From an uncultured Clostridia bacterium (GTDB lineage Bacteria > Bacillota > Clostridia > Christensenellales > UBA1242): a DNA stretch of 64,000 nt. Positions within the stretch are counted from its first letter, which is position 1, and each line of letters starts with the position of its first letter. The stretch covers positions 126,769 through 190,768 of the forward strand of contig CAKVOD010000001.1 of assembly GCA_934778205.1 (NCBI GenBank), in the 5' to 3' direction. Shown here in pieces: positions 61,500 through 61,535 of the stretch. Below the pieces are notes generated by a model. That model was not told where the DNA came from, searched no databases, and saw only the letters and a program-made list of their open reading frames with translations. Made by a program: the position numbers and the translations under genes.

Positions 61500-61535
61500 A
61501 CATTATTTTAGTTAAGTACTTAACTAAAATAATGT
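61500..61535. repeat. 36-bp perfect palindrome centred on TTAAGTACTTAA
   Basis: ACATTATTTTAGTTAAGT|ACTTAACTAAAATAATGT, verified base by base. Lies between mnmG and soj. Confidence 0.9.

Follow-up and report, generated by a model that had tools for sequence, protein, structure and literature searches.

Among the Firmicutes, several organiser motifs mark the origin-proximal part of the chromosome, including those of the RacA-ram and Noc-NBS systems. The motifs of RefZ are near-palindromic, present in few copies around oriC and conserved in position across related species (PMC6657595). Regulators of the LytTR type bind two direct 9-bp repeats with a 12-bp spacing (PMC2766830). The classical operator of a dimeric transcription factor is a conserved palindrome of about 14-20 bp, often with its cognate regulator encoded nearby. 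Little is known about the regulation of chromosomal parAB operons (soj-spo0J) or, in Clostridia, about origin markers beyond DnaA, Spo0A and ParB. The present study concerns a perfect palindrome of 36 bp located upstream of soj-spo0J in a stretch of 64,000 nucleotides from an uncultured Clostridia bacterium (Christensenellales, UBA1242; contig CAKVOD010000001.1, positions 126,769 to 190,768), hereafter referred to as the window.

Eight related species of uncultured gut Clostridia share the central 18 bp of this palindrome in front of soj. This core is the putative docking site of a sequence-specific DNA-binding protein, a reading to which we give about an even chance and in which the length of the palindrome would be a by-product. 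The element would most likely be a clade-specific 18-bp palindromic, protein-binding cis-element acting on soj-spo0J or on the organisation of the origin region. The motif was not found in the literature searched.

Conservation of the palindrome core upstream of soj

The palindrome covers positions 61500-61535, its two halves, ACATTATTTTAGTTAAGT and ACTTAACTAAAATAATGT, being joined with zero spacer, exactly as a previous sequence-only reading of this DNA had described. It is the longest perfect palindrome anywhere in the window and exceeds all those obtained when 64 kb were simulated 100 times with a first-order Markov model, where the maximum was 22 bp with the composition of the window and 28 bp with that of the 22%-GC spacer. 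The next-longest perfect palindromes of the window are found at the parS sites (32, 24, 20 and 16 bp), at two convergent DnaA boxes (24 bp) and at position 63690 (22 bp), known protein sites (parS or paired DnaA boxes) representing four of the five next-longest. The element sits in the 507-bp spacer between mnmG and soj, about 6.5 kb from dnaA, and ends 189 bp before the ATG of soj at 61725, fairly close to the earlier figure of about 185 bp. The start of soj was placed at this ATG on the basis of a ribosome-binding site (AAGGAG, 61713-61718), and gene callers agree on a 257-aa product.

Relatives were fetched through their Soj homologues as contigs of metagenome assemblies, forming a graded series of identity to the window. 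Group A comprises the window itself (L082) and a second strain (L081/L083) with an identical Soj protein. Soj is 95% identical to that of the window in groups B (L084/L085) and C (L086-L089), 86% in D (L090-L093), 87% in E (L094/L095), 86% in F (L096/L097), 84% in G (L140-L142), 87% in H (L143-L145) and 72-74% in three outgroups (L098, L099 and L146). The DNA examined thus consists of the 64-kb window and of +/-10 kb around soj in the relatives, all of it origin-proximal. The upstream neighbour of soj is mnmG in groups A-C and a divergently transcribed HI0933-like flavoprotein gene in groups D-H, the window homologue of the latter gene being located 21 kb away, at 39375-40610. The 18-bp core formed by TAGTTAAGT and ACTTAACTA is present upstream of soj in all eight groups A-H with 0-2 mismatches, including the five with the different divergent neighbour, and was not found upstream of soj in the three outgroups. 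In a nearly gap-free alignment of 200 columns containing one sequence per species (alignment A3), it is the best-conserved 18-column stretch, with 93.8% identity against a median of 63.9%.

The core changes between species (B, C, E, F, G and H) are one-sided and destroy the symmetry. The site of group B reads TAGTTTAAT followed by ACTTAACTA, those of groups C and E end in ACTTAACCA and ACTTAACTT, respectively, those of groups F and G begin with TAATTAAGT and TTATTAAGT, and group H carries AGTTAACTT as its right half. No compensatory pair was observed in the cross-species alignment, which RNAalifold returned as essentially structureless (-0.41 kcal/mol). These one-sided, symmetry-breaking changes, together with the lack of compensatory pairs and the weak hairpins outside species A, indicate a selection on the sequence rather than on the fold, and the pattern fits the signature of a protein-binding site, not that of an RNA or DNA structure.

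The operator-like site suggested by the sequence-only reading is accordingly best understood as a candidate protein-binding site, with a core under selection and flanks diverging among the eight species, and the conservation in related genomes that it proposed to check is found for the central 18 bp. Its argument that a palindrome of such a length needs a function is upheld for this selected core and fails for the arms, which are confined to this species.

Outside the clade, the nearest Soj proteins among the GTDB species genomes are only 67-68% identical to that of the window and none of these genomes carries the motif; a position weight matrix (PWM) scan of 1.35 Mb gave three weak matches, none of them near soj. 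The exact 18-mer had 28 matches in a metagenome scan, all in unrelated contexts, with no clade member and no regulon revealed, and a 16-mer had 10 matches in a viral scan, with no palindromic context, which is consistent with chance. In an unrelated organism of about 25% GC (L101, L104, L113, L120 and L122), the 18-mer is at the centre of a 38-bp palindrome, AAAACAAAAATAGTTAAGTACTTAACTATTTTTGTTTT, which lies between two genes in a conjugative-element-like gene row and resembles a bidirectional terminator.

Recurrence of the recognition unit around the origin

The functional element would be restricted to the central 18 bp, that is, to two inverted copies of a recognition unit, (A)TAGTTAAGTA. 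The 10-mer TAGTTAAGTA is present in four copies in the window against 0.12 expected, all within 50984-63760: the two palindrome halves, one copy at 50984 on the minus strand and one at 63751 on the plus strand. With a PWM derived from the eight soj sites, the window has eight matches scoring 8 bits or more, where 0.9 would be expected, and six of these matches fall within 50976-63751. The second core-like site (50976-50993, Table 1) is bracketed by DnaA boxes at 50941 and 50999. Elsewhere in the window, two weak PWM matches of about 11.5 bits each, TAATTAAGTTTTTATCTA and TAATTAATTACCTAATTA, lie 19 bp apart at 22211-22247, in the spacer preceding a gene for a class II aminoacyl-tRNA synthetase, and are probably due to chance in AT-rich DNA.

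A tandem pair of sites 24 bp apart, preceded by the DnaA-box-like ATGTGGA(T)AA, is located upstream of greA. This pair is perfect in species C, keeps only its left half in A and has decayed in B. A half-site comes after (convergent) DnaA boxes in D, E and F. Species B has lost the central GTAC from all three sites (the soj site and the greA pair), a joint decay that is expected if the binder was lost. The spacer between spo0J and greA is non-coding over 2.1-3.7 kb (L082 11694-13823; L086 9441-13193) and contains parS sites, DnaA boxes (e.g. TGTGGATAA at L082 12931) and the tandem palindrome-like pair; Rfam gave no known RNA in it. In D and E, the half-site lies upstream of a conserved gene for a 46-47-aa Cys-rich protein (CxxC...CxxCxxxC) past the parS region (L090 13691-13834; L094 10333-10473), of which a distant homologue (43% identity) is encoded at 27343-27468 on the minus strand of the window.

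The origin of replication was placed in the AGTACT-rich region between dnaN and dnaA on the basis of DnaA boxes and of the minimum of the cumulative GC skew, which turns at about 54-56 kb. AGTACT occurs 23 times in the window, 13 times between 52833 and 54691, and TAAGTACTTA is found in four copies against 0.03 expected, the three outside the palindrome being located in the dnaN-dnaA spacer (52831, 54282 and 54314). The oriC arrays match the palindrome over its inner 10 bp, T[A/T]AGTACT[A/T]A, and do not contain the outer TAGTT...AACTA; three species (A, C and F) have such arrays and three (B, D and E) do not, two of the latter, D and E, retaining an intact or near-perfect soj site. Through AGTACT, the sequence-only reading had linked an oriC motif to the partition operon. 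This link is at best a partial one: it survives in the common inner 10 bp and in the origin-proximal recurrence of the half-site, and is lost for the outer bases and for the patchy arrays. The arrays have a period of about 16-17 or 33 bp and flank DnaA boxes (window 52826-52950 and 54228-54700; L086 1-1200; L096 1504-1904), and might represent a satellite, a region of DNA unwinding or an array bound by a protein. A methylation or restriction target was also considered for AGTACT and rejected: B (AATACT) and H (AGTAGT) have lost the hexamer and keep the remaining site, hence AGTACT itself is not the conserved feature. No methyltransferase gene was found in the window.

According to Pfam, the gene order of the window in this region is jag, yidC and rnpA (all -), rpmH (-), a DnaA-box cluster, dnaN (-, 51570-52688), a 2.3-kb spacer, dnaA (+, 54987), two open reading frames (ORFs) without family match, mnmE, mnmG (59340-61217), soj and spo0J. 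DnaA-box clusters are located at 50833-51146 and 53047-53595, and no DnaA box (TTATCCACA, at most one mismatch) was found in the mnmG-soj spacer (61218-61724). The layout of this origin is unusual, with dnaN divergent from dnaA over the 2.3-kb spacer and six perfect DnaA boxes between rpmH and dnaN (50833-51146). In species D, dnaA and dnaN are on the strand of rpmH, divergent from soj, and these differing layouts indicate that the origin region was rearranged within the clade. The window also contains eight intergenic copies, with none expected, of a G+C-rich hairpin resembling repetitive extragenic palindromic sequences, GTAGCAGCGGGGCTATCCCCGC (35770, 47048, 47708, 47787, 53356, 53803, 54930 and 58997), variants of which fill the spacers 51300-51560, 53130-53380 and 53780-54100. 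An 18-bp tandem repeat, AAATATAGTAAATTATAT, is present in 3.7 copies at 63878-63949, in the large non-coding region past parS.

Palindrome arms and upstream geometry

The outer arms of the palindrome are restricted to species A. In strain L081, the palindrome, made of AATACATAATTTTAGTTAAGT and ACTTAACTAAAATTATGTATT, is perfect over 42 bp. Compared with the window, positions 61504 (T>A) and 61531 (A>T) are substituted as mirror images of each other, and two further substitutions in the flanks each make a new pair. All four differences in or beside the palindrome keep or extend its symmetry, for a whole spacer that is 92.7% identical, and the chance of such an outcome is in the order of 1e-3 by a rough estimate. 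A comparable trend was observed at 49 distinct parS sites of the clade, where the symmetry extends on average 2.37 bp further per arm, compared with an expectation of 1.05, a length reached by none of 2000 shuffles; the arm sequences around parS vary from site to site. The extra symmetry at parS and the mirror changes of L081 together indicate that functional palindromes tend to be lengthened throughout this clade. It is consistent with a hairpin-templated (template-switch) correction, a weak selection for hairpins being the alternative, and either process would keep the outer 9 bp of each arm symmetric in species A. As a mutational process, the correction of quasi-palindromes by template switch is established, with a description in E. 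coli (PMC7202029). The length of 36 bp is a local, species-level by-product of this self-perfection and lies outside the conserved site. Within the window (63468-63711) and in L081-L146, parS sites are embedded in longer perfect palindromes of up to 32 bp, and the 22-bp palindrome at 63690-63711, TATCAATGTTT followed by AAACATTGATA, looks like the first parS site without its CACGTG centre.

Farther upstream of soj, the element AAAAGTRGGGGTAAATTT (the GGGG element of Table 1) is situated at 131.5-135.5 bp from the palindrome centre in all six groups having it (window 61376-61475; L084 9667/9738; L086 7172/7243). It is also conserved upstream of soj in two outgroups with a 72-74% identical Soj and no palindrome (L098 5476; L146 2447). 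In A, B and C, the two arms of the long hairpin are separated by exactly 71 bp, though the loop sequence diverges, and the right arm has decayed in D-H. In E and H the G-run has been swapped for its inverted complement (GTAGGGGTAAAT to GTATACCCAAAT). A conserved small RNA between this element and the palindrome was sought: RNAalifold gave no structure, and no conserved ORF and no convincing promoter were seen. Neither for this region nor for four relatives did Rfam give a family above threshold, its sole matches being spurious microRNA hits to the long hairpin.

Table 1. Features of the origin region and of the soj upstream region in the window
Feature	Position	Strand	Remarks
Second core-like site, TAGTTAAGTACTAAACCA	50976-50993	-	One half perfect; 24 bits; between perfect DnaA boxes in the rpmH-dnaN spacer
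Second AGTACT mini-site cluster	52826-52950		
AGTACT mini-site array	54228-54394		33-bp period; shares the inner 10 bp alone with the palindrome
mnmG intrinsic terminator	61223-61248	+	Canonical; sole terminator called by a scan of 61100-61800
Long hairpin	61376-61475	+	20-bp perfect stem (61376-61395 with 61456-61475), then TTTT; -40.8 kcal/mol
GGGG element, AAAAGTGGGGGTAA	61383-61396	+	Left arm of the long inverted repeat; fixed spacing to the palindrome centre in six species
Left arm extension	61500-61508		Species-specific; with 61527-61535 lengthens the core to 36 bp
Conserved 18-bp core, TAGTTAAGT then ACTTAACTA	61509-61526		Two inverted copies of (A)TAGTTAAGTA; putative binding site of a protein
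Right arm extension	61527-61535		Species-specific; not conserved outside species A
Run of 7 T	61538-61544	+	Two bases past the palindrome; terminator-like with the hairpin, this species only
soj promoter, extended -10 box TGTTATAAT	61689-61697	+	Read from the sequence; TGnTA(T/C)AAT kept in all species
soj	61725-62498	+	Pfam AAA_31/CbiA
spo0J	62498-63418	+	Pfam ParB_N/HTH_ParB
Four canonical parS sites, TGTTTCACGTGAAACA	63476, 63516, 63556, 63656 (63476-63671)		Perfect; true centromere
Single half-site, TAGTTAAGTA	63751-63760	+	Downstream of the parS sites

Candidate function and rival explanations

The locus shares with the operators of dimeric transcription factors a perfect inverted repeat of 16-18 bp, a promoter-containing spacer, a sequence kept amid diverging flanks and additional copies before other genes, and the 18-bp core, with its 0-2 mismatches over eight species, is a conserved palindrome of the classical length. 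On this model, a clade-specific protein would bind the core either in dimeric form or as two monomers spaced by one helical turn, and could modulate the expression of the soj-spo0J operon from its upstream position. The same recognition unit would also mark a few origin-proximal intergenic sites, namely the tandem pair before greA, the site beside the DnaA boxes and the half-site past parS.

Several observations weigh against such an operator. No helix-turn-helix (HTH) or LytTR gene was found in the window or within +/-10 kb of soj in the relatives, though the binder could be encoded elsewhere; the only DNA-binding regulators among the window ORFs and the neighbouring genes of the relatives are Spo0A, DnaA and Spo0J, so that the cognate regulator often encoded near a classical operator is missing there. 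Unlike typical operators, the soj site overlaps neither the -35 box, the -10 box nor the transcription start of the recognisable soj promoter. The distance from the palindrome centre to the -10 box varies from 70.5 to 436.5 bp (70.5, 71.5, 80.5, 85.5 and 87.5 bp in D-H, 174 bp in A and B, 413-436 bp in C), with no strict helical phasing across groups. With no overlap and a variable distance, a direct effect on soj transcription is unproven. A promoter using the TTAACT of the right arm as its -35 box was considered and rejected, a properly spaced -10-like hexamer being present in four of the eight species against a background of 22%, which is not significant. The constant spacing of 131.5-135.5 bp to the GGGG element is not explained by a simple operator model. 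Finally, a sampling limited to origin-proximal DNA cannot separate a genome-wide regulon from an origin-specific set.

Two proteins encoded in the region were considered as binders and discarded. An ORF of about 165 aa without Pfam match, located between dnaA and mnmE (56784-57290) and also called in L081, L082 and L084, is missing from species C in spite of the perfect sites of that species; as to the small Cys-rich protein of D and E, the window encodes no more than a distant homologue, located elsewhere. The window also encodes Spo0A (receiver domain and Spo0A_C, 34901-35674) and ScpA/ScpB (28776-30496), the presence of Spo0A indicating that the organism belongs to a lineage having the master regulator of sporulation.

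The 9-mer consensus of LytTR-binding sites is [TA][AC][CA]GTTN[AG][TG], reportedly from the 2002 work of Nikolskaya and Galperin, and both TTAGTTAAG and ATAGTTAAG match this reported string at 8 of 9 positions. All nine bases of the half-site AGTTAAGTA agree with the first AgrA box of the agr P2 promoter of S. aureus (TAACAGTTAAGTATTT...), and CTAGTTAAG occurs in agr P3 (PMC8228455). In addition, the unit is found singly, inverted and as direct repeats, an arrangement that suits a domain reading one unit at a time. In contrast to the two direct repeats with 12-bp spacing bound by LytTR regulators, the units are here inverted with a 2-bp gap (soj) or direct with a 15-bp gap (greA), and the window contains no LytTR gene. 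The element could thus function in the manner of a LytTR box, the resemblance being a lead and not a proof of membership of this family. Resemblances to the TrpR operator, the FapR box, the Ter/RTP site of B. subtilis and the preferences of Rok were also considered and set aside.

A structural role of the palindrome was weighed against this protein-binding reading. It could be an AT-rich terminator or insulator shielding soj, or a cruciform, the core being conserved merely as the tip of a stem, a possibility that we consider unlikely. In species A, the RNA hairpin is indeed stable (-15.3 kcal/mol, z -5.1 in the window; -18.3 kcal/mol in L081), no shuffle being as stable, and it is followed on the plus strand by a T tract (T7 after 2 nt in the window, T8 directly in L081), as in a Rho-independent terminator; the mirror-image substitutions of the two strains keep or extend its pairing, and two more hairpin-plus-T structures lie just upstream (61223-61248 and 61376-61475). 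As a side effect of the arms, this hairpin and its U-tract may halt transcription arriving from upstream. Outside species A, however, the hairpins are weak (-2.5 to -6.2 kcal/mol, z 0 to -1.6 in C, D and E), the T tract is absent in E (L094) and variable elsewhere, and the changes between species break pairs without covariation. The stem, all A-T over 16-19 bp, has too few G-C pairs and no G+C-rich segment, contrary to terminators at the end of transcription units, and was not called by the terminator scan. There would also be little for it to stop: mnmG already has its own canonical terminator, and the gene preceding soj in D-H lies on the other strand, leaving no read-through. Terminators, moreover, do not normally conserve 18 bp amid diverging surroundings. 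That the palindrome has no function, being made and perfected by hairpin-templated mutation in AT-rich DNA and conserved through shared ancestry, appears quite improbable. In its favour, palindrome lengthening is clade-wide, as seen at the parS flanks, template-switch correction is established (PMC7202029), and several of the 28 metagenome matches of the 18-mer, all in unrelated contexts, lie within longer palindromes. Such a mutational process accounts for symmetry and not for the keeping of one particular sequence, while column identity over the eight species is about 64% in the flanks and 94% in the core, and the unit recurs at other loci far beyond chance.

The two remaining alternatives invoke a protein as well, acting otherwise than as a soj transcription factor. 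The soj site could be one anchor of a network read by an origin-region organiser or replication-linked factor, of the RefZ, RacA, Noc or SeqA kind, with full 18-bp sites beside DnaA clusters and parAB and AGTACT mini-site arrays in oriC; we would allow this a minor but appreciable probability. All strong sites lie within 13 kb of oriC, with none in the other 50 kb of the window, and several of the sites adjoin DnaA boxes, at 50976-50993, at the greA pair (after ATGTGGA(T)AA) and in D, E and F (after convergent boxes); the inner 10-bp palindrome is common to the oriC arrays, and the soj promoter lies at no fixed distance. The Bacillus RefZ-binding motifs offer a precedent for origin-proximal near-palindromic motifs with conserved positions (PMC6657595), to which the soj site in eight species, the greA pair in three and the site in the DnaA-box cluster can be compared, although the sequences are unrelated. 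The arrays are nevertheless patchy among species, D and E keeping the soj site without them, and do not include the outer bases kept at soj; the mnmG-soj spacer has no DnaA box, and the apparent restriction to the origin, seen here in origin-proximal DNA alone, may stem from the sampling. A centromere-like ParB/parS site, as suggested by the sequence-only reading, is scarcely tenable. The palindrome adjoins the parAB operon and is nested, like the parS sites of the clade, in a longer perfect palindrome, but its sequence is unrelated to the 16-bp parS consensus TGTTNCACGTGAAACA and, as a single copy, it precedes the operon. The true centromere is the cluster of four perfect parS sites 58-250 bp downstream of spo0J, and each relative has 2-7 parS sites apart from L098, the contig of which stops within spo0J; Soj itself is a short ParA of 257 aa without N-terminal DNA-binding domain.

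The putative docking site of a clade-specific protein thus stays our preferred reading of the core. As the organisms are uncultured, its immediate impact would be modest. The 18-bp site nonetheless constitutes a concrete bait for finding the binder by DNA pull-down or DNA affinity purification sequencing (DAP-seq), and the case of a functional core inside non-conserved, self-perfecting arms provides a guide for judging long perfect palindromes in AT-rich genomes. On a broader and rather unlikely hypothesis, the core would belong to an undescribed DNA-binding system of the origin region, in which one protein reads ATAGTTAAGTA as an inverted pair at parAB, as tandem or single sites adjacent to DnaA boxes and as relaxed AGTACT arrays in oriC. 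If true, such a system would link the initiation of replication to chromosome partition and possibly to sporulation, as SeqA, RefZ, RacA or CtrA do elsewhere.

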